Source: an uncultured virus (IMG/VR IMGVR_UViG_3300029915_000022) (Duplodnaviria > Heunggongvirae > Uroviricota > Caudoviricetes). From it: a DNA stretch of 64,000 nucleotides. A model generated the notes under the pieces. The model worked only from the letters and a program-made list of their open reading frames with translations. It ran no database searches and was not told the DNA's origin. The stretch's first letter is position 1. Every line of letters begins with the position of its first letter. The stretch lies in IMG/VR virus record IMGVR_UViG_3300029915_000022; one strand, written 5' to 3'. Shown here one piece after another: positions 8,530 to 45,764 of the stretch. A program made the translations under genes and the position numbers.

Positions 8530-8859
8530 TGGTGGAGATGCCGGGATTCGAACCCGGGTGCCAGAAAGGATTGATAGTGTTTCTACGCGCGTGTCGCCGA
8601 TGTCCCTCGGCGCTGAGCACTACAGGGCGAACCGGATTTCAGGTCCGGCTGCGCCTCCACCACTCGCGGAACTACGCCGCCGCGAGGCGGATGCTGTCAC
8701 CACCGGTGCTTGCGCCCCGGCGGGTGTTGCGAACTGCATCGAGCGAAACGACGTTGTCGTTGGCTTTTGTTGAGTGAGCAATTTTCTAACCCGGTGATCG
8801 CTCATTTCCGGGGCGCGCTACACTTCTCGTTCTATCCTGGTCGAAACCAGTTCATCCCC
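8530..8859 (-). ncRNA. ssrA: tmRNA (330 nt), tag reading frame 8764-8672: ANDNVVSLDAVRNTRRGASTGGDSIRLAAA*
   Basis: 5' GGGGAUG pairs with 3' CAUCUCC-ACCA with the G3:U Ala identity pair; 5' GGUUUCGAC; T-arm CCGGG-UUCGAAU-CCCGG; pk1 (CCCGG/CCGGG, UGAGCGAU/AUUGCUCA); tag starts ANDN and ends LAAA. Confidence 0.95.
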
Positions 8860-10058: not shown

Positions 10059-10700
10059 CTATTTATCCTTCACGAACTTAAAAGCGGGGTTACCCGATTT
10101 CCAAGTTTTCCCAGGAATAGCAACTCGCCGCCAACCCTGAATTCTCATACTAAATGGAACCAACGGCGCTGGAACGGCCCAATGCTCCCATCGTTGCAAT
10201 TCGGTTTTACCTTGTAGAGTAAGCCCCTTGGCAGAACCTCCGCAATTGAAAATAGATTGACGTTCTCCCTGCGGATTAACGTAGAACTTGTTTGTGGATA
10301 TACTTGTAGCGGTCCATCCAGAGCATAAGTACGTAAAGCCATTATGGTTTTGTCCCTTGTCCGAATAGGTCACCAATACCGGCCATCTAGATCGATCGAT
10401 TAAGAATTTCATTTGTCGCCATAGTGGCCGACTAATATGCTTTAGTTCTCTCTCTTTCTTGGGAATAGCAACCATTCTAGATAACGCTAGTACGGCCTGC
10501 GGTTCTTGCCAACACACCGATTTTGCTGCTCCAGGTGCCGGTGGTTGCCACATAAACCCAGCTACGATTTTCCCGCGTTCGAATACCCCGAATGCGTAAA
10601 CTGCTATTTTACCGGCGGATTTATATCCGTGGTACTTGTAACACAGTTCTTTAACTAATTCCGCATCACATAGTCGTAAATCGTAGGACGGATTTAGCAT
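10059..10700 (-). CDS. Mom-like (GNAT-fold) DNA base-modification protein
   Basis: KYHGY, ALSRMVA and LVTYSDKGQNHNGFTYLCSGW resemble the Mom family S/T-Y-x-D...H-x-G-x-x-Y-x-x-x-x-W motif; gene is noticeably more AT-rich than its neighbours. Confidence 0.7.
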   Translation of the reverse strand: MLNPSYDLRLCDAELVKELCYKYHGYKSAGKIAVYAFGVFERGKIVAGFMWQPPAPGAAKSVCWQEPQAVLALSRMVAIPKKERELKHISRPLWRQMKFLIDRSRWPVLVTYSDKGQNHNGFTYLCSGWTATSISTNKFYVNPQGERQSIFNCGGSAKGLTLQGKTELQRWEHWAVPAPLVPFSMRIQGWRRVAIPGKTWKSGNPAFKFVKDK

Positions 10701-11297
10701 CTATTTATCCGTAAATCGGTAATTCTCGACAAACTTCTGAAGAGCCATCGCAGCAACTCTTTCGCAATCATTCGATATCTGAACGATCGAAAAATTGTCC
10801 TCGATAGTAGAAGTCGGGGCAAGTCGCTTCTGAGATTTCTTGTCTGGCACGCCCATCTTCTTCAAAGAAAGATGGATAAGCCACTCAGACAACGGAAGTT
10901 TGCTCCGAACGCGTTTATGGATCTTCTTTGCGATTTCAGAAGCAATCGTCAGATTCGCGAAATGCCCGAAAGCTTCAAGACCGACATGAGGTTTCGAAAG
11001 CCAAACGGCCGCGAGCACGCCTTGGAAGTCCATCTGGAGCGAATCGTACGCCTTCTTAATCAGACGTACTCGACGGGCCGCATGAAACCCAGCCTTCCCT
11101 GTGGCCATCTTAAAAGCGGCCTCCGGATCCGTAATAAGGTCCGGTTCCTCATAGCCGCCTTGGGATCCTTCAAGCCTTGCCTGGATAGATCCTTGAATAG
11201 ACTTCCGGCCAAGGGCTCCGTCAGATTCGGTTGCCCACCACATAAGATCCTCTTGTTCGCGAGGATAGTATCGGAGAGGAAGAGGCGAGAGGCCCAT
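10701..11297 (-). CDS. Hypothetical protein, possible late-transcription regulator
   Basis: ATG overlaps upstream TAA (TAATG at 11299-11295). Confidence 0.5.
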   Translation of the reverse strand: MGLSPLPLRYYPREQEDLMWWATESDGALGRKSIQGSIQARLEGSQGGYEEPDLITDPEAAFKMATGKAGFHAARRVRLIKKAYDSLQMDFQGVLAAVWLSKPHVGLEAFGHFANLTIASEIAKKIHKRVRSKLPLSEWLIHLSLKKMGVPDKKSQKRLAPTSTIEDNFSIVQISNDCERVAAMALQKFVENYRFTDK

Positions 11298-12556: not shown

Positions 12557-12987
12557 ACCGGGTCCTCCGACGTACCAGGAAACGGAAGGGAAGGGCGAAG
12601 TCCAACACCGTCTCGAACCTTCGCCATATGCTTTTCGCGAGGAATCCGCTTGTCGAGCTCTTCGATCCTCTTAAGCTCTTGAAGGATCAACCCGCCAAGT
12701 GAAAGGCGACGCGATTCAGTCAAGGCGATAAGGGTAAGAGCCACTCCTGCAATCTCCTGATTGACTTCACCGGGAGGGCGACTGTAGACGCGGAATACGA
12801 TCTCGCGAACCTGCTCCTCGGACATTCCCATCGCCTGAGAAAGCTCGACAGATTCTTCAAGCTGACGAGAACCGCGCTCGTGCTGATCGTAGAAGATTTC
12901 GGTCCCAAAGGTCGCGCAGACCCACTCCCGCATCCGCTTCCCAGCTTTGATAATGTCGAACGCCATTAGGACACTCCTCTGGTCCAA
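12553..12987 (-). CDS. MazG-like all-alpha NTP pyrophosphohydrolase
   Basis: W...TFG...ER..R.LEE..EL and QEIAGV motifs. Confidence 0.55.
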   Translation of the reverse strand: MDQRSVLMAFDIIKAGKRMREWVCATFGTEIFYDQHERGSRQLEESVELSQAMGMSEEQVREIVFRVYSRPPGEVNQEIAGVALTLIALTESRRLSLGGLILQELKRIEELDKRIPREKHMAKVRDGVGLRPSLPFPGTSEDPV

Positions 12988-13259
12988 CGTCGGGTAATAA
13001 CGCCACTGTCCACAAAATCTCGACGAATAAATCCGTCTGCCGACAATATGGCGTAGATTCGTCGAGAAATGGATTCATGTGTAGATAGAGTAGCGGAGAT
13101 GTACGGTTGTAGATCAGAGATAATATCCCCGGTTGTGAAGGTAAGTTGCCGAGCTCGCTGCCTCGCATGAGTCAGAACGAGGTCCTCCCACGGATCGTCA
13201 TAGACGCCCATTAGAGGGCTCCCCATCGAAGGAACAGGCAAAGGGCGACAGTTGACCAT
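12966..13259 (-). CDS. Hypothetical protein, possible winged helix
   Basis: ORF in leftward operon. Confidence 0.4.
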   Translation of the reverse strand: MVNCRPLPVPSMGSPLMGVYDDPWEDLVLTHARQRARQLTFTTGDIISDLQPYISATLSTHESISRRIYAILSADGFIRRDFVDSGVITRRWTRGVS

Positions 13260-13341
13260 TCTTCAGGGTTATGCGGGGGCATCACCTTGGTCCAGAACCA
13301 GAGGTCGTTCTGGAGGAGTAGCCAAGCCGGTTTCGGAAGCA

Positions 13342-13569
13342 TTATTCGCCCGCTCTTTCTGCGGCTTCGGAGATTGCCCACTTTAGCGCATGGCATCGCA
13401 TACACCCCGTCTTGATGGCATCGACACGATTCTTTTCCTCTTCTCGGTTGCTCTCAAGGAACTTGTACTCTTCCTGATGATCGCGAGCAGTAAGCTCGTG
13501 CATCTGTAGATCTTGTCGAAGCTCCTTTACGTACCACTCGAAAGGCGGGTTGAAGCTATTCCAAGCCAT
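13342..13569 (-). CDS. Hypothetical protein
   Basis: GGAGG RBS before MAWNSF. Confidence 0.45.
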   Translation of the reverse strand: MAWNSFNPPFEWYVKELRQDLQMHELTARDHQEEYKFLESNREEEKNRVDAIKTGCMRCHALKWAISEAAERAGE

Positions 13570-13978
13570 GTTCAACCCTCCAGACGAACAAGGACCGCGT
13601 GATATGGAGCCCCAACCGGTCCCGAAGGACGTTGCAGGCACTCGTGACGTCATCCTGCCTATGCCCGTCCCGGTATTCTCGAATCTTTTCCATATCGGCC
13701 CGCCAACCGTCGATCTCCGTCATAGTGACGGTGAAGTTCGGAGCGTACAACTCATGCCGATGGAGTACATTCCCGAGGATCTGGTAGTAGGCGCGGAACA
13801 TGGATGAGACTTCGCGAACCTTCTTCTCTACCCGTGCATCCAGGATGGGCAGGTCGAAGATCGCGCCTTGGTCCACGTTATAGCCTTTATCCACAAGCAG
13901 TTGGCGGAAGGACGCTTTCTCGGGAACCTCGCGGAGCATGTGGCCAGGAGAAAGGCTTGGGTCGAGTTGGTTATTCAT
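13556..13978 (-). CDS. Hypothetical protein
   Basis: Overlapping operonic ORF. Confidence 0.5.
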   Translation of the reverse strand: MNNQLDPSLSPGHMLREVPEKASFRQLLVDKGYNVDQGAIFDLPILDARVEKKVREVSSMFRAYYQILGNVLHRHELYAPNFTVTMTEIDGWRADMEKIREYRDGHRQDDVTSACNVLRDRLGLHITRSLFVWRVEHGLE

Positions 13979-14162
13979 CGGTAGCCGCCTCTACCAAAGC
14001 GTAGAGCTCTGGGATTGTGAGTGTAAATCGTTCTTTTCCGTTGACTACCCAAGTGGCTGTTTCGCTCACGTGGCTGACACGTAACTCTCCAACGCGTTCT
14101 TCAGGCTCGCTTGGATCTTGAGAGATCACTGAATCTTTGAATTTGCAACTAACTATGCGCAT
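13971..14162 (-). CDS. Hypothetical protein, first gene of leftward unit
   Basis: AAAGG RBS upstream. Confidence 0.45.
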   Translation of the reverse strand: MRIVSCKFKDSVISQDPSEPEERVGELRVSHVSETATWVVNGKERFTLTIPELYALVEAATDE

Positions 14163-14530
14163 TGTGTCTAACCTTTCGCAGTTGGGCCAAAATGGGACAT
14201 AATTGTAGGGATTTCAAAGGATTTGTAGATCCTTTCAGGATTCTTAGTTGTTTTGGCCCAAATTTTGGATTCGTTCAATAAAGGATCTTTTGATAATGGA
14301 GAAATTTTTATCTATTAGGTATGGTATGTAAAATCTTCTACATTACATTTTGGATTATTTGGGCATGTAAAATCTTCTCTATGAGGTACTAGATTGGATT
14401 CGTTCGTACATTGGGATCCCTCGCGCCCCTACCCCGCCCCTTTGCAATTTCGCATGTAATTACATAGGCTTGCAAACGGGTAAGCCTAAAGGCTTATATT
14501 TGCCGCCCCATGGTAGGTCTGGCAGTAGGA

Positions 14531-15547
14531 AGGGCGTATAGGGTAGGGCAAGCCCCAGGTAGCCCCTAGGGCGTGGCTAGCATAATAGGCGGGTAGGGCT
14601 ATACCCCCGCGCCCCGCAATTGGGCGCAATGGCAGTATATTTACATATAAGTAATGGCATAAGTAATGGGCTAGCCAAATTATAGGCTAGGCAAGTATAT
14701 TAAGCCCATTAGCCCGCTTGGCAGGTAAGGCCAGCGGTATGGCGCTAGTAAGCCATACTTAATGCAAGCCTTACGCGGGGCTAATACTTAATAAAGCTAA
14801 ATAGGCAAGCCCATTACGCCAGTAAAAGCCCTTACCCTAGCAAGGTAAGGCGCGGTAAGTAATAGGCATATGCCAGCAAGCCTTATTACCATAATGCTAA
14901 TACATTACATAAAGCTAAGTAAGCCCCCAGTATGCGGCTTTAGCTATGTATAGCGCATTACTTAATGCTTTGTATTTGCTTAGCAAATAGCTAAGCCCAA
15001 AGTATTGTAAAAGCGCAATGTAAATGCAATGTGTAAGTAATAAGGGCTAAGTATGCTGGCAATGCCTAGGCGGTATTACATACGGCAATGGCCTAATGCT
15101 TAATGCTTAGTAAGTATAATTACTTATTAAGCATTGCGCAATAGGGCGCATATTACAAAAGGCGGCAAAAATGTATAAGCATTATATGGCAGGGCCCACC
15201 AAGCCTAATGCCAAGGGCGCGGCAAAGGTGCAGGCAGGGGCAGCATGCGGCGCAATTATGCGGGCAGGCGACATGTATGCGGACCCCGCGCCCGGCCTGC
15301 GCGGCGTGGCCTGCGCTACCTGCCCCGCGTGCCAGCAAGCGCGCCCCCAGCGCCCAAGTGCTACGCCGTGGCAGGCCATTGCGCCCAAGCCCGTGCAAGC
15401 TGCCCCAGCGCGCCCGGTGCCGTACCGCGTACAAGCCCTTGCCGCGCGGCTTGCCCGCTATGGGCGCTAGCAGGGCCGTGGCAAGGCAACAAGCGCTAGC
15501 AAGCGCGCAGGGCTAAGGTAGCTTAGCCTTGCGCGGTTACTAGGGCT
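14531..15547. other. GA/TC-depleted block at the transcriptional divergence point
   Basis: Manual scan: no GA or TC dinucleotide in 14531-15269; only two GA (15270, 15282) up to 15547. Confidence 0.95.
15171..15470 (+). CDS. Small Cys-containing early protein inside the GA/TC-free block
   Basis: 99 aa, C..IMRAGD...CATCPAC; no Glu; its two Asp codons are the only GA in the block. Confidence 0.6.
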   Translation: MYKHYMAGPTKPNAKGAAKVQAGAACGAIMRAGDMYADPAPGLRGVACATCPACQQARPQRPSATPWQAIAPKPVQAAPARPVPYRVQALAARLARYGR

Positions 15548-15582
15548 TCGCCCCTTGTACCTAGCGAGCAATAATGCTCGCT
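15547..15582 (+). promoter_or_regulatory. Putative sigma70-like promoter with overlapping 8-bp palindrome
   Basis: TTCGCC-17-AATAAT; AGCGAGCA-ATAA-TGCTCGCT at 15563-15582. Confidence 0.4.
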
Positions 15583-15600
15583 CAAGCGGAAGGTATTACC

Positions 15601-16047
15601 ATGTCCTCCAAGAACAACGGCAACAAGGCCCCCAAGATCAACGTCCAGGCGGAAGGCCCCGCGCTCAGCCTCAAGGTGGAAGAGTACAGCGGCGAGGGCG
15701 GCATGAGCCCCGAGCAGGTCGCGGTCATGCAGTCGCTCCCGCAGGCCATCGGCGACGGCAAGGCCGAGGAGCAGAAGAAGGAGCGCCACCCCGACCGCCT
15801 CAAGGCGTCGGAGCTCGCCAGCCCGGTCGCCACGGTCAAGGCCATGTTCACCGCGCTCCACGCGGCCGACCCGACCATGACCCGCAAGGCGATGCTGGAC
15901 GTCGCGATCAGCAAGGGAATCGCCTTCTACACCGCACGCACGCAGTATCAAGTCTGGAAGAAGGGCGGAGCGGACTCGGCGCCGATCAACGTCAAGCCGA
16001 CGCTCGACCTCAACGCCTTCGCGGCTGGACTCGCCAAGTCGGCGTAG
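15601..16047 (+). CDS. TQY-x-x-W family protein, paralog 1 (putative DNA-binding)
   Basis: RKAMLDVAISKGIAFYTARTQYQVW; GGAAGG RBS. Confidence 0.75.
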   Translation: MSSKNNGNKAPKINVQAEGPALSLKVEEYSGEGGMSPEQVAVMQSLPQAIGDGKAEEQKKERHPDRLKASELASPVATVKAMFTALHAADPTMTRKAMLDVAISKGIAFYTARTQYQVWKKGGADSAPINVKPTLDLNAFAAGLAKSA

Positions 16048-16058
16048 TAAGTAGATCC

Positions 16059-16114
16059 TCAAGGCAGCTACTGCAGATCATGTTCAATGGTCTGCAGTGT
16101 CGGCACTGAGGCCG
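16059..16114 (+). repeat. Structured intergenic element, copy A
   Basis: TCAAGGCAGCT + 11-bp hairpin + GT + CGGC-ACTGAG-GCCG, then GGAGG and ATG 16127. Confidence 0.85.
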
Positions 16115-16126
16115 AATGGAGGTATC

Positions 16127-16288
16127 ATGGAAACGAACAACCGGCAAGCGTACCAAATGCACTTCGAGGAGCTGGTGGATCTCCTCGCCCAAGGAATGAT
16201 GTACACGAGGGACAACACGTACAACGATGGTCAGCAGTGGATGTACTTCGACTCACTCTGGATCGAACTCCTCAGCCGGGGAGGGTAA
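16127..16288 (+). CDS. Hypothetical early protein
   Basis: GGAGG RBS. Confidence 0.55.
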   Translation: METNNRQAYQMHFEELVDLLAQGMMYTRDNTYNDGQQWMYFDSLWIELLSRGG

Positions 16289-16293
16289 GGACG

Positions 16294-16458
16294 ATGGACG
16301 GCTGCGAGTGGCCTCGCACTGAAGACGGGCACATTCTGTGCGAAGAACCCACCGGGTGCCACACCTGTCGGATCAACTTCCCAATCGATTGCGCAGAATG
16401 GGAAGCTCGTTACGAAGACTACGAGCGCTCCAAACTTCCGGAAGGGACCAAGGCATGA
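16294..16458 (+). CDS. Small Cys-rich protein
   Basis: AGGA RBS; C...C..C...C pattern. Confidence 0.45.
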   Translation: MDGCEWPRTEDGHILCEEPTGCHTCRINFPIDCAEWEARYEDYERSKLPEGTKA

Positions 16459-16550
16459 CCACAAGGACCTTCTTCATCTGGCTCGCGGCTGTCTTCATCG
16501 CTGACGTCGCGGCCAGCTTCCTCATCGTTTTCATCATCCTTCACTGGTAG
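16455..16550 (+). CDS. Small membrane peptide
   Basis: ATGA coupling; MTTRTFFIWLAAVFIADVAASFLIVFIILHW. Confidence 0.45.
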   Translation: MTTRTFFIWLAAVFIADVAASFLIVFIILHW

Positions 16551-16553
16551 GCT

Positions 16554-16610
16554 TCATGGCAGCTAATGCCGATCAGCTTCGGTTGGTCGGCATTGACGGC
16601 AATCAAGCCG
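16554..16610 (+). repeat. Structured intergenic element, copy B
   Basis: TCATGGCAGCT + 13-bp hairpin closed by C(TTCG)G + GA + CGGC-AATCAA-GCCG, then GAGGG and ATG 16627. Confidence 0.85.
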
Positions 16611-16626
16611 AGAAGAGGGTAAGACA

Positions 16627-16821
16627 ATGATCTACATCACCTGCCACTTCAAGCACAGCGGGAAGACGAAGGTCTACCGGTTCGACAATCCGCTCGCCGC
16701 GATCATGTTCGCTCAGAGCGCCAGTGCAGTCGGCATCCCGTACGAGATCACGGAGGTCGATCAGAATCTGCCTGACGTCGGCCCCGCGATGCAGCTCACC
16801 TCTAACCAGCACATGGAGTAG
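16627..16821 (+). CDS. Hypothetical early protein
   Basis: RBS and ORF after element B. Confidence 0.55.
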   Translation: MIYITCHFKHSGKTKVYRFDNPLAAIMFAQSASAVGIPYEITEVDQNLPDVGPAMQLTSNQHME

Positions 16822-16824
16822 ATC

Positions 16825-17295
16825 ATGTCAACCGTGATTCAGCAACTTGCCGCGATCGTTACTGCTCGCCTCTTTTGTCTCGACAAGATGAACGCCGCTG
16901 CCGTATCTCCCAGCAATCCTAGCACCGCAGAAACCGCCCGCGACTTCTCGCACTGTCAGGAAATGGCGGAGAGGCACGCCGATACCATAGCAGATATTGA
17001 GCGGCGTTATTTGCCGCACGGTAGCGGTATCGACTGCGGAACCAAGGTGGACCTAGTAAAGAGCAGCGGAAACAAGCTAGTTCTCAACTTCGGCTTTCAT
17101 CACATGGATCGGTCCGGGTATTATTGCGGTTGGAGTGACAATACCGTCACGATCCGTCCTCACCTTCAGTTTCTCTTCACTCTCGACTTCAAGACGAGCG
17201 GTCAAGACCAGAACAGCAAGCGATCGCGCGATTCCCGCGACTATTACTACAATGTTTTCCACTTTTCGCTTTGCAAAATCTGGCAGAAAGAATAA
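16825..17295 (+). CDS. Hypothetical protein
   Basis: GGAG RBS; LPHGSGIDCG...FHHMD..GYY.GW. Confidence 0.6.
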   Translation: MSTVIQQLAAIVTARLFCLDKMNAAAVSPSNPSTAETARDFSHCQEMAERHADTIADIERRYLPHGSGIDCGTKVDLVKSSGNKLVLNFGFHHMDRSGYYCGWSDNTVTIRPHLQFLFTLDFKTSGQDQNSKRSRDSRDYYYNVFHFSLCKIWQKE

Positions 17296-18243: not shown

Positions 18244-18603
18244 ATGCTCCGGAAGAATAAGCACCATCCGACTCGCCCTCGGGAGAAGGCTTACTACAAG
18301 GGATCCAAACTCTACTCTAGATCAGGATCAAATCGCCAGCTCGCCCAAGAGCTGGCGCAGCACCGTCTTCCTCCGCCCATCTATCTCTCGATCACATTCC
18401 GGAATAGATGGACGATCCCACGCGACGAGTATCTAGCGGTGGAGTGGCTCAAGGCTCGCCCTATGCTCGGCAAGCCTCGATTCACTATTGGATCCCGCCT
18501 ACAGGATCAAATAAAGGATCCTATTGTCCACAGGCATGTGCCGACGTGCGATGATACCCTTGAAGAGAAGCTGCGGGCGAGTCTTATTCCCAAGGCTTCT
18601 TAG
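18244..18603 (+). CDS. Hypothetical basic protein
   Basis: GAGG RBS. Confidence 0.45.
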   Translation: MLRKNKHHPTRPREKAYYKGSKLYSRSGSNRQLAQELAQHRLPPPIYLSITFRNRWTIPRDEYLAVEWLKARPMLGKPRFTIGSRLQDQIKDPIVHRHVPTCDDTLEEKLRASLIPKAS

Positions 18604-19345
18604 GCGTTCCCGGGATCGGAGGTGGGATCGGGAGGGGTTCAGGGATCTGATAGGTTATGATTGCGTGCGGAAAAGGACGGATGGGATCAGTAGAATTCGC
18701 GGGGTGGGATCCAAGCGCCCTATTTCCTCCCTCATTTCCCGATTCCCTCACTTCTGTAAACTCCGCATCCAATTCGTCCTCTAACCCCTCTAGCATCTCC
18801 ACCCTCCCATTTGCCTCACGCCGAATCATTCTTACTCTAGCGGCATTCCTTTCGCCACGATCTTTACTCTCCATTTCAAACTCGTGCCTGACCTTTTCGT
18901 CAAAGTACACTAAGAAGTTGGGTAAGCTAACGTCCACCGGCGCCTTCAGCACACATCCACTATAAGGCGTCAGCGCCCCGTACATCCTCACCTCCCACGG
19001 GAGCCTATTCTTTCTGTAGAACAGAATGGGCTCCCGTACGAGTGCCATCGTATTTCCTCCCTTCTCCCCTCTCACGATTCCCATCGCGGCTGCTTTAGTC
19101 TGCGCCCACCATACATCTACAATCGAAGCACCCTCTTGCTCTCTGCGCTTCACCTCTGCGGCCATCCAATCCAGGCCCACAATATCACTTCCATTGCCAT
19201 TCCCTACGCGAGCCCGCGACTGCTCCAAATTCCTCTCCAATCGCACCTGCCTGTATCCATACTTCAGGCATACCGCGTCAATTCGCGCTTGCAGGATTGC
19301 AATCATCTCGTACTCGCCGCCCATTCCCTTCGACTTCGGTGTCAT
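18584..19345 (-). CDS. PD-(D/E)XK nuclease, Holliday junction resolvase-like
   Basis: KSKG..GEYE, RNLEQ, GSDI...AAEVKRRE, WWAQ, PILFYRKNR..W. Confidence 0.75.
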   Translation of the reverse strand: MTPKSKGMGGEYEMIAILQARIDAVCLKYGYRQVRLERNLEQSRARVGNGNGSDIVGLDWMAAEVKRREQEGASIVDVWWAQTKAAAMGIVRGEKGGNTMALVREPILFYRKNRLPWEVRMYGALTPYSGCVLKAPVDVSLPNFLVYFDEKVRHEFEMESKDRGERNAARVRMIRREANGRVEMLEGLEDELDAEFTEVRESGNEGGNRALGSHPANSTDPIRPFPHAIITYQIPEPLPIPPPIPGTPKKPWE

Positions 19346-19698
19346 TCATTCTCCTTGCGCTATGCGCATTCAACCAAGTCCCAATCAAATCCTAATTGCA
19401 TCTAACTTCTACTTGAATAACGGCTGTTGGAGGGTAGGAACCGCTCATTAACAGCCAAATCACCCTTATACGCTTGAATTTCTACCTATCTTCCTTACTA
19501 CTGTTAATTGTTAATAATGATAATAAAGTATGGTAATTATTATTCACCTAATCTACGCGCGTAAGATTCACGTAGAATTTCAGCCGTAGCGGAGTAAATT
19601 TTGTACGCTTTTTATATGCACGCATTAAATTTGCATACTTTAGCGGATTTACAGGCTTTTTCCCATTATCCCGACATTAACCAGCATTAACAGCTGCA

Positions 19699-20911: not shown

Positions 20912-21051
20912 CCGCGTCCATTGGCAGAACTGGCCTTGAGGGGTCGATGTCGACGTCGACGTCGGAGTCGGGGTCGAGGTCGTGGTCGACGTCGGGGTCG
21001 GAGTCGGGGTCGAGGTCGGGGTCGTGGTCGGATACGGGGAGCGCGCCGTGA
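20908..21051 (+). CDS. Ser-X repeat peptide 1 (47 aa)
   Basis: ATGA overlap with upstream stop; MTASIGRTGLEGSMSTSTSESGSRSWSTSGSESGSRSGSWSDTGSAP; not in ORF track. Confidence 0.6.
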   Translation: MTASIGRTGLEGSMSTSTSESGSRSWSTSGSESGSRSGSWSDTGSAP

Positions 21052-21306
21052 CGGCGGCGGTGCTCAAGGTGGGCCTCGACAATGCCTGGTCGAGATCGGA
21101 GTCGGGGTCGGGGTCGTGGTCGGGTTCGAGGTCGTGGTCGTGGTCGGGGTCGGGGTCGTGGTCGGGGTCGTGGTCGGGGTCGAGGTCGTGGTCGACGTCG
21201 GGGTCGGAGTCGGGGTCGAGGTCCAAGTCGGGGTCGAAGTCGAGGTCGTTGTCGTGGTCGTGGTCGGGATCGAGGTCGTGGTCGTGGTTGGGTTCGAGGT
21301 CGGGGT
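20944..21306 (+). repeat. Degenerate hexamer tandem repeat (TCG-NNG)n in two tracts
   Basis: Units TCGGGG, TCGAGG, TCGTGG, TCGACG, TCGGAG. Confidence 0.9.
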
Positions 21307-21314
21307 TGACATAG
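21048..21314 (+). CDS. Ser-X repeat peptide 2 (88 aa)
   Basis: GTGA overlap, GGGGAG RBS; (M)TAAVLKVGLDNAWSRSESGSGSWSGSRSWSWS... Confidence 0.65.
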   Translation: MTAAVLKVGLDNAWSRSESGSGSWSGSRSWSWSGSGSWSGSWSGSRSWSTSGSESGSRSKSGSKSRSLSWSWSGSRSWSWLGSRSGLT

Positions 21315-21387
21315 CGTAGTTAGGGCTTCTATTCGGAGTAGAAGCCTTATAGTGCGCAATGGAGCGTACTGTTGAAGGGAGTAAAAA

Positions 21388-21602
21388 TGGACATCGAAAT
21401 GTTTGGCCAGATTCCAGAAGCATGGGATCTTATCATGGAAGCCAGTGAGCCTGATGTGCTTACCGCTGAAATCTCTACGGAGATTTGGATGGCGCATACG
21501 GAGCAGGGTTGGGATCTTAAGCCGATGCCGCATGAAGTGGACGTTCGGTGCCCTGGACCGATGCACTGCGAGTTCTGGCAGCTGTGTGAAACCAATGCGT
21601 GA
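21388..21602 (+). CDS. Hypothetical protein
   Basis: GGGAG RBS. Confidence 0.45.
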
Positions 21603-21795
21603 CTTACTCCCTGGTCCGAAACAGCGGATGGCGATTTATGCTCAGCATGAGGCGATGGGTGCCCACATGGAGGCAATTTGGTGGAGGGACATTCGATCCC
21701 TCATCACCCGCGATCTGGAGGCTGCCGAAGCGTTTCAAATTCAGTCGGCTGGATTCTACAAGATTGCACGCCAGCTGATGGGAATTGAAGAATGA
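21595..21795 (+). CDS. Hypothetical protein
   Basis: Coupled ORF. Confidence 0.4.
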   Translation: MRDLLPGPKQRMAIYAQHEAMGAHMEAIWWRDIRSLITRDLEAAEAFQIQSAGFYKIARQLMGIEE

Positions 21796-22247
21796 CTCCC
21801 GTCTTGCAAGCGATCAAAGTGACATTCGGCTATTCGCCGAATGGGAATCCTCGCTACATCGCCAAGTGCAATGCGAGGAGGATCTCAGTGCCAACGGCTG
21901 ACTGCGAAGGTCGTAGTCAGGACGAACATGCACACTTTGCCGCTCAGAAGTTAGCTCGGATGCTGGAGTGGTCCGACCAACTTCTGGGAGGTTCAATCGA
22001 TAAGGGAGCTCATTGGGTCTTTGTCCAGATCCCAAAGCCGACTTCCGTTGAATGGCGGCGGACCGGGCGCACGATCTTGACTGACATCTCGAGAAGCTGG
22101 CTACTGTGCAATGGCGATCGCGAAATCCTTTATGTGTCCCGTGCGGAAGGACCGAACGGGTACGCGATTACCCCGTCCAAGGCGGACGATCTCGTGCAGT
22201 TAATCACTAACCTGTTGAATGGAAAGGCGGTCGACGATGAAGCTTAA
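21792..22247 (+). CDS. Hypothetical protein
   Basis: ATGA coupling. Confidence 0.5.
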   Translation: MTPVLQAIKVTFGYSPNGNPRYIAKCNARRISVPTADCEGRSQDEHAHFAAQKLARMLEWSDQLLGGSIDKGAHWVFVQIPKPTSVEWRRTGRTILTDISRSWLLCNGDREILYVSRAEGPNGYAITPSKADDLVQLITNLLNGKAVDDEA

Positions 22248-22419
22248 TTCTGACGGCGGACTTGTGTGCGATGACGTGATGGGCGGCGACGAGGAAAACT
22301 GTGAAGGAGAGCAGTTCGCCATTGACCTCGCCATCGATGGCAAGGTCAAAGTGCATTGCCTTGATTGTGGAAAGGAGTTCGATATCGCCGTCGTCACGCA
22401 GACCTTCGCCGATCAGTAA
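22237..22419 (+). CDS. Small zinc-ribbon-like protein
   Basis: C...C...CLDCG. Confidence 0.45.
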   Translation: MKLNSDGGLVCDDVMGGDEENCEGEQFAIDLAIDGKVKVHCLDCGKEFDIAVVTQTFADQ

Positions 22420-22501
22420 TGGCCTGCCCGATAGATCCTACCAGCTAGGATCTTGAGGGGAGTTCACTACATAGGGGGGTGCTCCAGAAGAGGGTGTTAC
22501 A

Positions 22502-23143
22502 ATGGGCGAAATCGATTATTCAGCTCCTGAGAAGATTGTTTTGATCGGCCGTTCGCAGGCCGGTTGGCACGCGGCATACACCTGGGGAGGCGGTGGTCAA
22601 ACCGGGTCTTCAAGCGGTGGTTCGCTCGAAGGATACGTGAAGGATCGCCCTGCTGGCGACGAGAATTCTCGTGGTGGCAGAACTGCGGAGGGAGCTTTCG
22701 TTTACGACGGGAAGAATCTCTCCTACGAAGATGCCGCCAAGATTGCGATTTGTGGACCGATTCCGTATCCCCTTGTGCCGCTCGGCATGGCGGAATATGA
22801 GCACCACTATCCGCCAATCTACAAACACGCGTCGGAGTGCAAGATCGGGAGCATGACGTACGTCGCGGTCGACGTCTACCTCGATTATTATCGGAGGGCT
22901 GGAGCCCGTATCGGGCAGGTTCACAACGAGCGCGTCTATTGGGACGACGAACGCGTTCCGGATGCGGTGATCGAGGCCGTCTGGAAGCTTGTCCATAACC
23001 CGGAAGAATTGAAGGCGAGTTGCCAGAAATTTCAGTCAGCTCTTCGTCTTCTCGGGTACGATTCGCTCGGCGGGCACTACTATCTGAATCCGTGGTGTGG
23101 GATGTACGTCGGAATCGAGAAGGACGGATACACTCACTCCTGA
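22502..23143 (+). CDS. Hypothetical protein
   Basis: GAGGG RBS; ends GMYVGIEKDGYTHS. Confidence 0.55.
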   Translation: MGEIDYSAPEKIVLIGRSQAGWHAAYTWGGGGQTGSSSGGSLEGYVKDRPAGDENSRGGRTAEGAFVYDGKNLSYEDAAKIAICGPIPYPLVPLGMAEYEHHYPPIYKHASECKIGSMTYVAVDVYLDYYRRAGARIGQVHNERVYWDDERVPDAVIEAVWKLVHNPEELKASCQKFQSALRLLGYDSLGGHYYLNPWCGMYVGIEKDGYTHS

Positions 23144-23223
23144 ATTCAGTTCTAAAAATCTCTAGACATGGCATACCGCCTTCGCTAGACTGTATCCAGT
23201 AACCCAACCAAAGAGGGATTCAA

Positions 23224-23427
23224 ATGTATACCGACAAGAACTACCAATCGAAGGCTGAGTTGAAGCGAGACGTTGCTTCTGGCAAGAAGGTGACGATCTA
23301 TGCCCCTGGACTCGGGACGCCTGTCGTCAACGGGAAGGAGACCGTCTGCGGGCCACATTTCCCCGCTCCTCATCGGTGGTACGCCGAGGTTATCATGAAG
23401 GACGGCGTGATCGAGAAGGTGAAGTGA
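23224..23427 (+). CDS. Conserved small phage protein
   Basis: NYQSKAELK...GPHFPAPHRWYA. Confidence 0.6.
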   Translation: MYTDKNYQSKAELKRDVASGKKVTIYAPGLGTPVVNGKETVCGPHFPAPHRWYAEVIMKDGVIEKVK

Positions 23428-27195: not shown

Positions 27196-27270
27196 CCTAC
27201 CGTAACTCGTACCTTATTTTCAACAGGCAAAGTAGATATGGAGTCGTTACAGTACGATCTAAATAACCGG

Positions 27271-27299
27271 TTGCCTTAAAAGGGCCGGTGGGCCATTAT
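27271..27299 (+). promoter_or_regulatory. sigma70-like promoter in a 48-bp GA/TC-free island
   Basis: TTGCCT-17-CATTAT. Confidence 0.55.
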
Positions 27300-27363
27300 T
27301 AGGGCTTGAAAGTTCGTGAAGTCGAAGTCCAAGCTGTTCCACGTTGCAAAGAGGAGGTCTACC

Positions 27364-33816: not shown

Positions 33817-34869
33817 ATGCCCGAGAAGAAAGCCGTCAAGAAATCAGCTTCAAAAGGATTCTACGCTCGTGAGCGCGACGCAAAAGCTGCGGCGCTCAAG
33901 AAGTACAAGGAAGGCGAATTCGAGATCGTCTACGGGCCGAAGGGCCATTCGATCCGAGAAGTCAAGCAGTACGTCGCGGTCCCGGATGCGAAGTTGCATG
34001 GGCCGCATGACGAGCCGGAAGAAAAGGAAGAGCAACCGGAGACGGACAAAGCCCCGGAGGAACTTCTACCCGTGGCTTCCATTCCTCCCAAAGAGGAATC
34101 CGACGATATTCGGAGCGATAGTTCTGCCGGAGTACGTGCGCAAGTTGAAGCGCTGAACGAGATCCTGTCCGCCGATCCCGGTACGATGACGGACGAAAAG
34201 GCAGATGCCATCATGAAGGCGCACGCGCCGTCTCATACCGGAACGGTGACAGGAAGGTTGGACTCTTCCCTTCCGCATTACTCCAATATCTCCAAAACCG
34301 ATCCGATCGCAATCGTCTCTGAAAAGGTTGCAATCGAAGCCACCGTGATCGAAGAACACCCTGCGATTCCCCACAGGGTGGAATGCCCGCAGTGCAAGCA
34401 GATGATCGAAACCTTCGGGATCGAAGGTGCTCGCTTCTTTATCGAGCACGAATCCAAGACGGAGGATGGGATCGGCTCCGACTGCGAGCAGTCGGAAGAA
34501 AGCATTCCGCCTGTCAAGCCCATTCCGACCAACGGCTTCAAGCCCCATGAGCTCGCGCAAATCCAGAACGCGGCTGTCGAGAATGGTGCGGAAGCCGCTC
34601 GGGTTGCCGCTTCCAACGAGCGAGGCGAGCAAGTCCGCCCGCTGACCAACCACCTGAAGAAGTCGCTAGTTCCGAGTCCTTCCAAGCTCGTCTGGGAGAT
34701 TGCAGATCAGCTGAAGATTTCCAATCCGACTTGGCAGCGCAAGGACATCATCAAGCACCTTGAATCCAAAGGGATCGCGCATTTCACCGCTCGTACCCAA
34801 TACCAGCAGTGGCTGAAGGCAAATCGGGAATCCACCGCGAACGCAGCGCTGGCGAATGCCAAGAAATAA
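33817..34869 (+). CDS. TQY-x-x-W family protein, paralog 3 (long acidic N-terminus)
   Basis: PSKLVWEIAD...RKDIIKHLESKGIAHFTARTQYQQW. Confidence 0.75.
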   Translation: MPEKKAVKKSASKGFYARERDAKAAALKKYKEGEFEIVYGPKGHSIREVKQYVAVPDAKLHGPHDEPEEKEEQPETDKAPEELLPVASIPPKEESDDIRSDSSAGVRAQVEALNEILSADPGTMTDEKADAIMKAHAPSHTGTVTGRLDSSLPHYSNISKTDPIAIVSEKVAIEATVIEEHPAIPHRVECPQCKQMIETFGIEGARFFIEHESKTEDGIGSDCEQSEESIPPVKPIPTNGFKPHELAQIQNAAVENGAEAARVAASNERGEQVRPLTNHLKKSLVPSPSKLVWEIADQLKISNPTWQRKDIIKHLESKGIAHFTARTQYQQWLKANRESTANAALANAKK

Positions 34870-35053
34870 TCCTTCTCGCGCTATGTGCAGGTTCTGCTTC
34901 GTCATGTACGACATACTGGTTGTTCAGTGTGTTGTAGAAGATGGAGCGGGACCTTCACAGCATTATCTCGAATACCATGAACGACGACCGGATGAGCGGT
35001 GTCCTGGTTCGGGATCTAAATGCGTAGACGCGAATGGAACCGCCCTCCAATAA
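34856..35053 (+). CDS. Small Cys/His protein
   Basis: CRFC...H......CPGSG. Confidence 0.45.
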   Translation: MPRNNPSRAMCRFCFVMYDILVVQCVVEDGAGPSQHYLEYHERRPDERCPGSGSKCVDANGTALQ

Positions 35054-35057
35054 CCAT

Positions 35058-35087
35058 TTTACGGCTTGGCCCGGTTGGGCTTATAAT
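35058..35087 (+). promoter_or_regulatory. sigma70-like promoter in a 48-bp GA/TC-free island
   Basis: TTTACG-18-TATAAT. Confidence 0.65.
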
Positions 35088-35117
35088 GCCCGTTAGAGTT
35101 CATTGAAAGGATAACCA

Positions 35118-38185: not shown

Positions 38186-38914
38186 ATGAAACTTCCGAAT
38201 GCGCAGCCCATTTCGAAGCAAGAACTTAACCCGGACGGGAAACTCGTAGTCCACTCCGTATTTGGAACAATCCAAGGGGAAGGGCCGTTTGCAGGGGAGC
38301 GATCCGTTTTTGTCCGGCTCGGCGGGTGCAACCTCCAGTGTCCGCTTTGCGATACGGACTACACTGTAACTGGCATCGCAGAGAATCTGATCGAAGTTGA
38401 GTACATTCTGGAATCCATCAAGGATGAAGCCGATTCAGAGTTAGTTGTTCTGACTGGTGGAGAGCCCTTTCGCCAGAACATCCGCCCCCTTGTCCACAGC
38501 CTTCTCCGGGCTGGGCACCGGGTCCAGATCGAAACCAATGGGACACTCTTTGTCGACCTTTGGAGCGGTCTTGAAAACCACCTCCTTTTCGACCTCACGG
38601 TTGTTTGCAGTCCCAAGACGGGGCAAGTCAATCGCGAGCTCCTCCCGCATGTCGACGCACTGAAGTACGTGCTCCATGCGGACTACGTTGATTCGGAAGA
38701 CGGCCTACCCTTAACAGCTCTGAACCATTCGGCTTTTCCGAGGGTCTTCCGACCGCCGAAGGGATGGGAATTCTACGGAAAGATCTACATCCACCCGGTC
38801 GATTCTGGCGACCAGGAAGAAAACAAGCGGCACATGAAAGCCGCTTTTGATTCGGCTGTTGCATTCGGCTACACTCTCGGCGTCCAGATGCACAAAATCT
38901 ACGGAGTTCCATAA
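38186..38914 (+). CDS. queE: 7-carboxy-7-deazaguanine synthase (radical SAM)
   Basis: TIQGEG, RLGGCNLQCPLCDT, TGGEP, ETNG, CSPK, QMHK. Confidence 0.95.
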   Translation: MKLPNAQPISKQELNPDGKLVVHSVFGTIQGEGPFAGERSVFVRLGGCNLQCPLCDTDYTVTGIAENLIEVEYILESIKDEADSELVVLTGGEPFRQNIRPLVHSLLRAGHRVQIETNGTLFVDLWSGLENHLLFDLTVVCSPKTGQVNRELLPHVDALKYVLHADYVDSEDGLPLTALNHSAFPRVFRPPKGWEFYGKIYIHPVDSGDQEENKRHMKAAFDSAVAFGYTLGVQMHKIYGVP

Positions 38915-39696
38915 TGGAAAAAGCTCTCGTTGTTCTTTCTGGCGGTCAAGATTCCACCACCTGCCTCTTCTGGGCGAAACAACAGGGGTGGGAGGTCCAC
39001 GCGGTTACCTTCGACTATGGCCAGCGGCATCGACTCGAGATCCAGTCTGCTTTGCGGATCGCAGAGCTCGCGTCCGTAAAGTCTATGGAAGTCGTTCGGC
39101 TGGGAGCGATTCTGGTCGGGTCCTCACCACTCATTTCTGGGAACCTTCTTGAGCAGTACAAGGATCATTCGAGCCTTCCGGGAGGGCTGGAAAAGACCTT
39201 CGTCCCCATGCGGAACCAGCTTTTCTTGACTGTAGCTGCCAACCGCGCAGCTGTTATCGGGGCAACGCGCCTTGTCACCGGCGTGTGCGAAGAAGATTAC
39301 GGAGGATATCCGGATTGCAGGAGAAACTTCATTCTGGCTTTGCAGGTTGCCTGCAATCTCGGAACCTTTACTGGCGAGCCGGGTGCTCCGCAACCGCTCC
39401 AGATTGAAACACCGTTGATGAATCTGACTAAGGCACAGTCGGTAGAGTTGGCGATGGAGCTTCCAGGGTGCTACGAAGCTCTTGCGTACTCCCATACCGC
39501 TTACGATGGTATCTACCCTCCGACCGGGAGGGATCATGCAAGTCTGCTCCGTGCGAAGGGTTTCGAAGAAGCCGGAATTCCTGATCCCCTTGTGCTTCGT
39601 GCATGGATGACCGACGCAATGGATCTCCCGAGTACCGTGAACTACGGGCAGGACATCGTCAAGAAGTATGCGGCTCTTCTTGGGAAGGTGTCGTAA
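38914..39696 (+). CDS. queC: 7-cyano-7-deazaguanine synthase
   Basis: SGGQDSTT, FDYGQRH, VPMRN, GYPDCR, TPLM.LTK. Confidence 0.95.
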   Translation: MEKALVVLSGGQDSTTCLFWAKQQGWEVHAVTFDYGQRHRLEIQSALRIAELASVKSMEVVRLGAILVGSSPLISGNLLEQYKDHSSLPGGLEKTFVPMRNQLFLTVAANRAAVIGATRLVTGVCEEDYGGYPDCRRNFILALQVACNLGTFTGEPGAPQPLQIETPLMNLTKAQSVELAMELPGCYEALAYSHTAYDGIYPPTGRDHASLLRAKGFEEAGIPDPLVLRAWMTDAMDLPSTVNYGQDIVKKYAALLGKVS

Positions 39697-40151
39697 TGGC
39701 CGGAGTTATCGAGGCGGTTCGCTACCACGATATCTCGGTCGGCCATCGTGTTTGCAGACACGAATCGAAGTGTGCGAATTTGCACGGGCACAACTACAGA
39801 ATCCATTTTGTAGTCCAGCAAGAGAATCCCGAATCGGTAGACGCTGTCGGGCGGGTTCTGGACTTCTCCGTGATCAAGTCGAAGTTGTGCATGTGGCTTG
39901 AAAACCACTGGGATCATAAGTTCTTGATCTGGGAAAGAGATCCTCTCGCTACCATTCTAAAGAAAGCGGATTCGACCGTCATCTGGAGCTCGTTCAACCC
40001 GACGGCTGAAAACATGGCGAAGTTCCTGGTCCAGATCGTCGGACCTGAGCAACTCCTTGGGACCGGGTGCGTCCTGGTCGCTGTCAAGGTTGAAGAGACC
40101 GCGAAGTGCGCAGCAACCTACTCTCTCCAAACGGTGAACTCAGGTGAGTAA
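39696..40151 (+). CDS. queD: 6-carboxytetrahydropterin synthase
   Basis: GH...[24 protein letters not shown]; start MAGVIE overlaps queC stop. Confidence 0.93.
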
Positions 40152-40731
40152 AAAGATCGCTGCAAGGCTTCTTATGGTCTCGGATTCCGTAGAGGCGATA
40201 ATCGAACTTCTTGTCCCGAATCCGACCCGGGAAGGTCTAAAGGAGACGCCACTCCGGGTTGCGAAGGCGTGGGGAGAATGGCTCTCGGGATACAACCAGA
40301 AGCCCGAGGATGTCCTCAAGGTCTTTGAGGACGGAGCGGAAGAGTATGACGAATTCGTCATGGTCCGCAACATCCCATTCTACTCCCACTGCGAACACCA
40401 CATGGCTCCGTTCTTCGGGACCGCGACTGTCTCGTACATTCCAAACGAGAAGATCGTTGGGCTCTCCAAGCTTGCACGCCTTGTGGACATCTACGCAAAG
40501 CGGCTCCAAGTTCAGGAGCGGCTTACCAAGCAGATCGCAAACGCCATCGAAGAGCATCTTGCTCCGAAAGGCGTTGCCGTGGTGATCAAGGCTCGACACT
40601 TTTGCATGGAGTCGCGCGGTGTCCACAAGCAGGGTGAGGAAACGGTTACGTCGGCGCTCCGAGGCGTGATCAAGAAGGACCCGGCTGCTCGCATGGAATT
40701 CTTCCAACTCGCTGATATCAACGGAAAGTAG
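40144..40731 (+). CDS. folE: GTP cyclohydrolase I
   Basis: [36 protein letters not shown]. Confidence 0.96.
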
Positions 40732-41745: not shown

Positions 41746-42663
41746 ATGCGATTGTATCTAGCTGGAATCTTCACTGCCGGGTTTCACCCGTTCGGAAGTG
41801 CATGGTCACGGTGTACGGATCAGGAACGCGCGCAGCGGAATAGTGCATCCCACCTTCTCGAATCGTACCACTACTTCAAGAGCCCTACCAAGATAGATCC
41901 CATGCGGCGGGAAGGTCGCAAGATGTTTCTGGACTCCGGGGCATTCTCTGCATACACCAAAGGGGTTGACATTGACCTCCCGGCCTACTGCGAGTTCATC
42001 AAAGCCAATCTCGACATCATCGAAAATGTTGATGGCTGTCTGCTTGCTTCTGTTCTTGACGGCATCGGTGATCCCCAAAAGACCTGGGAGAACCAGCAAA
42101 GAATGGAGCGTCTCGGAGTCAAGCCCCTGCCTTGTTTTCACTTTGGGGAAGACCCACGGTATCTTGATTACTACGCCGCGAACTACGAGTATATCACCAT
42201 CGGTGGTATGGTGCCAATCCAGAAGCCTCAACTCTTCACATGGCTGGATCGAATCTGGGAGAAGCACCTTTGCGATGGAGCTGGCAGGCCAAAGGTTCGT
42301 GTTCATGGATTCGGACTAACGCGAATCGATATGATGCGGCGTTACCCGTGGTTCTCCGTGGATTCTTCGTCATGGGTGCAAGTGGCGCGCGTCGGTGGTA
42401 TGCAACTCCTGGACGGAGGCATGGTTAGCGTTTCGGAAGAAGCTCCTTCTCGCAAACAGTTCGACCGCCACATCGATACAATGTCCAAGGAGCACCGCGC
42501 AGCACTGGAGAAACAGCTTGTGGAAGCGGGGACAGACCTCGTACGTATGCGAACAACTTACCTTGCACGCTGGGCGTATAACATTTGGGCGTTTGAAATG
42601 ATTGGACGCGACCAGAAGAAGCAAAACGACGTCTTCAAATTTGATCAGATCGGACTTTTCTAA
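41746..42663 (+). CDS. dpdA: DpdA-like 7-deazaguanine DNA transglycosylase (TGT fold)
   Basis: FLDSGAFS, P.FH.GE, IGG, VHGFG, SVDSSSW; same operon as queE/C/D and folE. Confidence 0.8.
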   Translation: MRLYLAGIFTAGFHPFGSAWSRCTDQERAQRNSASHLLESYHYFKSPTKIDPMRREGRKMFLDSGAFSAYTKGVDIDLPAYCEFIKANLDIIENVDGCLLASVLDGIGDPQKTWENQQRMERLGVKPLPCFHFGEDPRYLDYYAANYEYITIGGMVPIQKPQLFTWLDRIWEKHLCDGAGRPKVRVHGFGLTRIDMMRRYPWFSVDSSSWVQVARVGGMQLLDGGMVSVSEEAPSRKQFDRHIDTMSKEHRAALEKQLVEAGTDLVRMRTTYLARWAYNIWAFEMIGRDQKKQNDVFKFDQIGLF

Positions 42664-45670: not shown

Positions 45671-45764
45671 TCGCTGGTTATAGGGCGGCGCATGGCCCTA
45701 GCCAATTAAACAACCATGTAACCGTACCCCTGCAACTATACTACCTTGTTACCAAGGAGAACCA

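Follow-up and report, generated by a model that had tools for sequence, protein, structure and literature searches.

The 64,000-nt stretch of DNA analysed here (the window) comes from an uncultured virus of the class Caudoviricetes (IMG/VR record IMGVR_UViG_3300029915_000022) and represents nearly the whole of a phage genome, a circle of ~65.1 kb. An IMG/VR fragment (G001), 100% identical, joins the window end to its start with 1116 extra bases and does not include the block described below; there are also contigs of 65,243 and 65,527 bp. The leftward arm encodes the major head protein, a protease, the large terminase and a Mom-like protein, and the rightward arm a primase-helicase, a Sak4-like ATPase, a single-stranded DNA-binding protein (SSB), a Cas4-type exonuclease, a helicase, a ligase, QueE, QueC, FolE, a ThyX-like protein, DpdA, a sliding clamp and PolA. 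Between the two arms lies a block of about one kilobase (14531-15547) almost devoid of the dinucleotides GA and TC. An earlier note on this DNA proposed that the phage has purged from this block the target of its own DNA modification, the exchange of guanine for preQ0 by DpdA. This proposal is weighed here against the alternatives.

A local ban on GA and TC

A recount confirmed exactly the zero GA/TC reported for 14531-15269 and the only two GA up to 15547; both are GAC (15270 and 15282), and TC is absent throughout. The 64-kb window contains 9832 GA/TC dinucleotides (frequency 0.154), and its longest gaps measure 741 bp (14529-15270) and 266 bp (15282-15548), followed by gaps of 133, 98 and 86 bp. 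Under a geometric model, the expected numbers of gaps of the two largest sizes are 2.1e-50 and 5.3e-16, respectively. When all ten strand-symmetric dinucleotide classes were examined in the window, none of the other nine contained a gap with an expectation below ~1e-4. The location of the block at the divergence of leftward and rightward genes was also corroborated, with minus-strand genes extending to 14162 and plus-strand genes beginning at 15601. GATC and TCGA, correctly noted as common outside the block, occur 545 and 413 times in the window and not once within it, and the block is indeed plentiful in GGC (49) and GCC (40).

The avoidance of AAC/GTT is a second ban, significant independently of that of GA/TC. 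As previously noted, both words are missing from 14531-15269 (0 copies each). In 14422-15169 one occurrence was seen against 14.2 expected (P=1e-5), and in none of 20,000 first-order Markov (Markov-1) simulations were AAC and GTT both missing. AC in the block is found almost exclusively within TAC, and GT almost exclusively within GTA.

The block is not an assembly artefact, since the identical sequence recurs across public sequencing runs. At least half of its sampled words were present in 16 of the 24 listed public runs, all labelled peat metagenome, and comparison of the block with contigs from four runs revealed zero differing letters in all four.

GA/TC density is 0.151 in the other intergenic DNA vs 0.157 in coding DNA. 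Both dinucleotides exceed expectation at all codon positions (observed/expected ratio, O/E, 1.14-1.32), including the freely variable 3-1 junction. These normal values indicate that there is no genome-wide drain on GA/TC and that the block is a local exception. Of the 3051 point substitutions in the block, 1008 create a GA or a TC; with a third of substitutions recreating the banned steps, the state of the block is either actively maintained or very young. The under-representation of GA/TC in the block thus goes beyond composition and mutation bias and is probably selected.

Two parts can be distinguished in the block (Table 1). Part A is non-coding, as TAA and TAG stops are frequent on both strands, and is strongly enriched in TA (99 seen vs 24 expected from the rest of the window). 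Compared with 20 dinucleotide-preserving shuffles per strand, it shows excess RNA folding on the plus strand (z = -4.6) and on the minus strand (z = -7.8), a signature of DNA-level inverted repeats. The 8-mer TAAGTAAT is specific to the block and is present in six copies, four in plus and two in inverted orientation, within 14648-15126, while TAAGTAA occurs seven times in the block vs a single time in the remaining 63 kb. A search of the block for long repeats, tandem or dispersed, found none. Some words are distributed asymmetrically between the strands (CAG 12 vs CTG 1; CAA 22 vs TTG 6), and a sigma-70-like site is located on the plus strand at 14672-14701. An Rfam search of 13900-15900 retrieved just one match, to a microRNA model (E=0.096), which was taken as chance. 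Both the private word and the excess structure suggest that the block is a functional cis-element.

A possible gene, ORF99 (ORF, open reading frame), extends from the end of Part A through most of Part B. The two surviving GA correspond to in-frame Asp codons of ORF99, and its avoidable GA/TC are zero, compared to 118.5 +/- 20.6 per kb in window ORFs of at least 100 amino acids. The placement of both GA in Asp codons is weak evidence for coding, and ORF99 is regarded as a putative gene only, because high-GC DNA lacking TGA and TCA is open by default. Among 5.8e9 proteins it matched itself only, and no Pfam family was assigned.

The left part of the same intergenic region is rich in GA/TC. It contains three sigma-70-like sites on the minus strand, and as judged from these the leftward promoters probably lie there, hence outside the block. 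TTGCAA was also considered as a promoter element and was dropped, its sites being mostly intragenic and having no consistent partner.

Table 1. Positions in the window of the features of the block and of the genes discussed with it.
Feature	Position	Strand	Remarks
Left part of the intergenic region	14163..14421		~260 bp, GA/TC-rich; direct repeats: TTGGATTCGTTC twice, a 34-nt repeat twice
Whole depleted zone	~14422..15548		1127 bp; five GA/TC in total (14450, 14518, 14529, 15270, 15282)
Part A	14531..15269		739 bp, GA = TC = 0; GC 47%; dense inverted repeats
TAAGTAAT, two in tandem	14648..14667	+	12-bp period
TAAGTAAT copy	14856..14863	+	
TAAGTAAT copy, inverted	14957..14964	-	
TAAGTAAT copy	15034..15041	+	
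Hairpin, 25-nt arms	15092-15145		Example of the inverted repeats of Part A
TAAGTAAT copy, inverted	15119..15126	-	Within hairpin 15092-15145
ORF99	15171..15470	+	Possible small basic protein: 2 Asp, 0 Glu, CxxCxxC
Part B	15270..15547		GC 71%; two GA (GAC at 15270, 15282), TC = 0
First rightward gene	15601..16047	+	C-terminal three-helix, winged-helix-like domain (GIAxFTARTQYQxW)
preQ0 genes	38186..40731	+	QueE 38186-38914, QueC 38914-39696, FolE 40144-40731
DpdA	41746..42663	+	DNA guanine transglycosylase homolog; phrog_887, E=3.3e-71; candidate GA reader

Shorter islands free of GA/TC were also detected at 36184-36317 (133 bp), 45671-45757 (86 bp), 35046-35096 (50 bp) and 27258-27308 (50 bp). 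Each runs to the Shine-Dalgarno sequence or the start of the next gene, and they are probably promoter or 5' leader regions. A further run of 98 bp (26043-26141, E ~1.6e-4) lies inside the primase-helicase coding sequence, is written in a block-like style (…GGGCTTTGCAAGGCTATTACGGCC…) and may be an embedded regulatory site.

The deazaguanine system and its likely motif

The window encodes a DpdA and, upstream of it, genes for the synthesis of preQ0 (Table 1). QueD was not recognised; between 39668 and 40087, the ORFs either lacked a Pfam match or were not cleanly translatable. Over ~94-100% of its length, the window DpdA shares 45-56% identity with the DpdA of 239 phage records. Its identity is 45-49% to those of phages iggy and NP1 and 47% to that of a Seuratvirus. 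According to the accessible text of the respective reports, the DpdA of phage CAjan targets GA and GGC (PMC7544227) and that of Pseudomonas phage iggy is strictly specific for GA, ~97% of the GA sites being modified (PMC10484667). The earlier note had cited GA as a CAjan target; this holds as far as it goes, as the CAjan motif described in the accessible text also includes GGC (PMC7544227).

The palindromes of the window outside the block provide a clue to the motif that is protected in this phage. Palindromic 6-mers without GA are under-represented (median Markov O/E 0.59, n=43; base-composition O/E 0.50), whereas those containing GA/TC are not (0.98, n=16, and 1.71), and the split is significant (Mann-Whitney P=0.004). 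Among the GA-less words, GGGCCC (0 seen, 25.4 expected), GCATGC (0 and 17.9) and AGTACT (0 and 12.6) are missing, and GCCGGC (2 and 25.4) and AGGCCT (1 and 17.9) nearly so. Conversely, GGATCC (59 seen, 17.9 expected), TCCGGA (49 and 17.9) and GAATTC (34 and 12.6) are in excess. ATTAAT and TTTAAA are also absent outside the block. Enrichment of GA-containing palindromes reaches up to 3-fold, and the 545 copies of GATC amount to 2.2 times the base-composition expectation.

Since GA sites are exempt and GGC sites are avoided, the specificity would resemble that of iggy rather than that of CAjan. As far as can be judged from these counts, the pattern fits GA, and not GGC, being the protected (modified) motif, and the window DpdA most likely acts on the G of all GA steps, whichever strand carries them. 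The same test was applied to iggy and to 20 other genomes, two of which are contigs of unknown dpdA status. A clear asymmetry was found only in NP1 (P=0.013) and DoCa3 (P=0.002), and one with a smaller gap (0.86 vs 0.75) in PSTCR4 (P=0.023).

Two further genes relate to DNA modification. The Mom-like protein is encoded on the minus strand at 10059-10700 (PF25680, E=4.5e-9) and the ThyX-like protein on the plus strand at 40735-41712 (PF02511, E=8e-39), adjoining the deazaguanine genes. Based on these matches, the phage may carry a second DNA modification.

Counterparts in other phages

A panel of 19 named dpdA-positive genomes and two contigs of unknown dpdA status was surveyed with the same measure throughout: GA/TC were counted in 500-bp windows, and the minimum was divided by the mean of the genome. 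This ratio was 0.00 in the window, 0.16 in iggy and 0.28 in the Shewanella phage S0112, all three minima being mostly non-coding. The remaining 17 named genomes and the two contigs ranged from 0.36 to 0.67, and their minima frequently fell in coding repeats of low complexity. When local composition was corrected for, the two lowest of 120 values (20 genomes x 6 two-member dinucleotide classes) were those of the window (0.00) and of iggy (0.13). The corrected value of S0112 (0.26) is borderline, as it equals the AC/GT value of the same phage, and AC/GT in BcepGomr reaches 0.23.

S0112 has a genome of 62 kb and shares with the window the primase, Sak4, SSB, exonuclease, helicase, QueE, QueC, FolE, DpdA, clamp and PolA. 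A gene-poor stretch (21344-23254) starts 9.1-9.4 kb past its primase, and the block lies 9.15 kb past the primase of the window. At the left edge of this stretch, S0112_044 carries the ~50-amino-acid C-terminal domain of the first rightward gene of the window (42% identity over 33 amino acids, E=8e-8). The matching distance from the primase and the shared neighbour domain indicate that the S0112 zone and the block are syntenic, although their DNA is not alignable. The zone contains GA/TC-free runs of 157 and 144 bp, is enriched 1.8x in TA and uses a vocabulary also found in the block (GGGCTAGCC, TAAGCC). In S0112_044, 10 of the 13 GA are located in Asp/Glu codons, TC occurs three times and the avoidable GA/TC number 6 vs ~25 expected; for the ORF at 21913-22239 the corresponding figures are 13 of 15, three, and 5 vs ~25. 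This purge at the codon level shows that, within coding DNA, selection acts on the nucleotides themselves and disfavours GA as well as TC on one and the same strand.

The analogue in iggy is non-coding and occupies the last 680 bp of the record (59949-60628), beyond the first gene of the leftward arm. It contains 16 GA/TC vs 65.8 expected (P=2.8e-14), with GA/TC-free runs of 152 and 95 bp, and the genes adjoining both record ends are mildly purged (avoidable GA/TC 27-42 vs 72 +/- 19 per kb). The window and iggy have the replication and preQ0 module in common, and iggy encodes a homologue of the window gene at 18584-19345. iggy resembles the peat phage in its homologous DpdA (45-46% identity), its two-armed genome and a non-coding, GA/TC-poor region at the arm junction, in iggy also the terminus; it differs in that the poor region is shorter and leaky (0.13-0.16 vs 0.00) and in that the structural and packaging genes are unrelated. 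In the accessible text of the iggy paper, the genome is reported to be bidirectional and to have direct terminal repeats of 1091 bp, and the GA/TC-poor terminal region is not mentioned (PMC10484667). One terminal-repeat copy is carried by record MN029011.1. In the same record, a 16-bp direct repeat (GTAAATAACGCCCGTT) is found near both ends (16-33 and 60598-60613), and two G9 tracts at 60411-60440 flank TAGTAAA words in the terminal non-coding region. TAGTAAA resembles TAAGTAAT and was rejected as a block word, being a different word.

No sequence-homologous orthologue of the block was found by blastn or at the syntenic, primase/DpdA or neighbour-gene loci. Specifically, 13000-17000 gave no match in a distant-mode blastn search of the phage collection, and the protein of 15574-16047 none among viral contigs. 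At 16 primase and DpdA loci (175 kb) no GA/TC-free run exceeded 62 bp. Two structural relatives found through TerL (G002 and G003) have no block where synteny would place it; in G002 there are only GA/TC-free stretches of ~50 bp (11014-11064, 11114-11164 and 12914-12964), at least two of them promoter-like repeats.

Several candidate analogues were discarded. A GA/TC-free run at one locus of the neighbour-gene family (L110) is a coding low-complexity repeat, and the 144-bp runs of NP1 and DoCa3 are GC-rich low-complexity stretches of the CTGCTG type. In SHIN8 a CAjan-type island free of the combined motif (GA + GGC) was considered; the minimum ratio was 0.43, which does not constitute an island.

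Interpretation of the block and neighbouring features

Based on the available evidence, the reading that we favour is that the block is a selected island lacking the target of the phage's own DNA modification, within a cis-acting control region likely near a terminus; we hold it tentatively, with a likelihood slightly short of even. According to this reading, the phage would make a preQ0-type 7-deazaguanine that DpdA inserts at the G of GA steps on either strand. As GA and TC are purged over ~1.1 kb at the junction of the two arms, this DNA, as the only part of the virion DNA, would keep ordinary guanine. The island, with six copies of TAAGTAAT, many hairpins and perhaps one small basic gene, would act as a cis-acting control region in which proteins probably need unmodified DNA, to read it or to open it, as infection begins or in replication or packaging. 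Its position at the head of two gene arms and the small three-helix domain encoded by the neighbouring gene also fit such a region. The modified base might deprive a binding protein of major-groove N7 contacts; alternatively, the base-excision chemistry of DpdA might interfere with DNA that is opened repeatedly. We infer DpdA as the reader, the unmodified state of the island and its function from the data presented above. The DpdA account is the simplest one, since DpdA is the one known enzyme class that reads GA:TC on duplex DNA. The proposal of the earlier note that a modification target was purged from a region that must stay unmodified is supported by the palindromes with regard to GA as the protected motif, while the need to stay unmodified and the function are inferred.

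By analogy with iggy, a terminus-proximal region combining packaging or entry signals with immediate-early control, at the head of an early arm, is the favoured function. The first-step-transfer region of T5, with its injection stop signal, and the leading end of T7 are non-coding terminal regions rich in repeats and palindromes. The block is comparable to them in being non-coding on a kilobase scale, in its repeats and hairpins and in its position at the head of early transcription, and the iggy analogue lies at a genome end. To our knowledge, the T5 and T7 regions are not described as free of a dinucleotide.

A replication origin is possible but less likely. In phage P4, the ori and crr sites form an iteron-type origin bound by the P4 primase-helicase, and the block recalls this arrangement in that an octamer is repeated six times in both orientations, clustered within 14648-15126, in a genome that has a primase-helicase gene. 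In contrast to P4, the window primase is located 9 kb away. GC skew changes from -0.185 (18-20 kb) to +0.198 (20-22 kb), and the skew bins show no switch of strand composition at the block (14-16 kb). The origin is considered less likely because this flip near 20 kb lies beside a 353-bp intergenic region (19346-19698) that is AT-rich (38% GC) and low in GA/TC (0.085). Judging from these features, the latter is a classical-looking origin candidate, better than the block.

Several observations weigh against an unmodified island. The GA specificity of the window DpdA is deduced from sequence, and iggy, whose DpdA is strictly GA-specific, shows no palindrome asymmetry (0.75 vs 0.81), which indicates that the palindrome test is not universally sensitive. 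The block holds 24 GA-less palindromic 6-mers (21 per kb vs 5.8 elsewhere), including the only GGGCCC and GCATGC of the genome; it is odd that palindromes eliminated elsewhere are kept in supposedly unprotected DNA, even though these 24 are still under the Markov-1 expectation of the block itself (40 +/- 7). In addition, 1.1 kb is far longer than binding sites need. A comparable non-coding zone is missing in 17 of the 19 named dpdA-positive genomes, including NP1 and DoCa3, so that DpdA phages in general do not need such a block; the scan across such phages that the earlier note had proposed therefore gave a mixed outcome, with iggy and S0112 as weaker analogues. Finally, GA/TC content is normal around the gene in the family of the first rightward gene (64 loci, 55 distinct); at one of these loci (L154), a 150-bp GA/TC-free run in a block-like style directly follows the family gene.

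Taking these points together with the analogues, it can be hypothesized, with somewhat less confidence than for the block itself, that some DpdA phages delete every GA:TC step from one control region of kilobase size, which becomes the only virion DNA with ordinary guanine and is needed unmodified for an end, origin or immediate-early step, that their modification map is in this way written into the primary sequence, and that this occurs in at least three lineages (the peat phage, iggy and S0112).

The most serious alternative, which we consider rather unlikely, is that an enzyme other than DpdA, likely a host defence, reads GA or TC on single strands, both strands of the block being exposed as the DNA extrudes hairpins or cruciforms, opens at an origin or is transcribed both ways. 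Avoidance of a single dinucleotide on each strand would then show as a ban on GA plus TC, and the presence of DpdA would be coincidental. The block is hairpin-rich on both strands, as such exposure would require, and most dpdA-positive phages lack a block. Furthermore, a GA-specific reader of single-stranded RNA exists: according to the accessible text of the report, CmdT of the CmdTAC system ADP-ribosylates GA in single-stranded mRNA, and a defence of this kind would favour GA-free transcripts (PMC11618068). CmdTAC, however, acts on one RNA strand, and the block is mostly non-coding and bans GA on both. An RNA-only reader predicts depletion limited to the transcribed strand, whereas both strands of the block are purged (TC 0, GA 2) and the sense strand of the purged genes of S0112 is depleted of avoidable GA and of avoidable TC to the same degree. 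Besides, all three phages bearing the feature carry a DpdA from the group in which a GA motif was measured, the match between this motif and the banned dinucleotide would be a coincidence of about 1 in 10 (ten symmetric classes), and no candidate reader was found in the window.

It is improbable that the block is a by-product formed without any sequence reader, be it foreign DNA, local hypermutation (for example G-to-T changes at GA arising from abasic DpdA intermediates, which yield TA) or a decayed GA-free repeat array. The excess of TA in Part A (99 vs 24 expected) against ~115 missing GA/TC would agree with such an origin, as would the lack of a homologue by blastn against phages, the orphan status of ORF99, the absence of the block from G002 and G003 and the persistence in it of palindromes purged elsewhere in the genome. 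On the other hand, GA is not lost at synonymous or other intergenic sites, the borders are sharp with a GA/TC-rich neighbour within the same intergenic region, and a diverged repeat array would have regained GA/TC, as a third of substitutions recreate them. The codon-level purge of S0112 shows selection, and the private iteron-like word and the excess structure argue for function. Equally improbable is a long structured non-coding RNA gene or leader free of GA/UC because of RNA structure or RNase avoidance and not of DNA reading: fold energies far below those of shuffles, the sigma-70-like plus-strand site within the block and the CAG/CTG and CAA/TTG asymmetries speak for it, but no Rfam family matched at E better than 0.09, a structure excess on both strands is expected from DNA-level inverted repeats and RNA alone does not forbid both GA and UC.

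As a selection footprint of a sequence-reading enzyme, the finding resembles the avoidance of restriction sites by phages, which this genome also displays in its GA-less 6-mer palindromes. It differs in that the word is a dinucleotide, the ban is total but local (1.1 kb) and the word is likely read by the modifying enzyme of the phage itself rather than by a nuclease of the host; a total local ban matching the phage's own likely motif is unusual. In a literature search, which extended to the accessible text of the papers on iggy and CAjan, no description was found of a modified phage genome with an island free of the motif or of modification. Motif-limited hypermodification has so far been treated as uniform armour. 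If the proposed reading is true, modification carries a cost at some essential cis-acting site, and sequence alone could reveal where that site lies and which motif an uncharacterised DpdA acts on. Likewise, palindromes that escape avoidance offer a way to infer the protected motif in uncultured modified phages, here GA and not GGC. Phage iggy is available in culture and has a measured motif, and nanopore reads of its native and amplified DNA are public, as stated in the accessible text of its report (PMC10484667).

With regard to the neighbouring features, the C-terminal domain of the protein encoded by the first rightward gene is also present in S0112_044 and in the window gene at 33817-34869. 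In the predicted model, residues 75-125 have pLDDT (predicted local distance difference test) values of 88-91. The best structural matches of the three-helix domain are RecX repeats, the Rpa2 winged helix and E2F-DP, all with Z of 5-6; no function can be claimed for the protein, as these fold matches are weak. This ~50-amino-acid domain (…PxKxVWxIAD…NP…RK…GIAFYTARTQYQxWK) occurs in small phage proteins, namely those of the two window genes, S0112 21003-21344 and 64 loci (L098-L163 except L120/L121), and corresponds to no Pfam family.

In the leftward arm, a transfer-messenger RNA (tmRNA) gene is located on the minus strand at 8530-8859, just upstream of the terminase genes. The tag predicted by ARAGORN ends in ...IRLAAA, and the only Rfam match above the gathering score across the window is to this gene (RF00023, 83 bits vs a gathering score of 47, E=1e-30).

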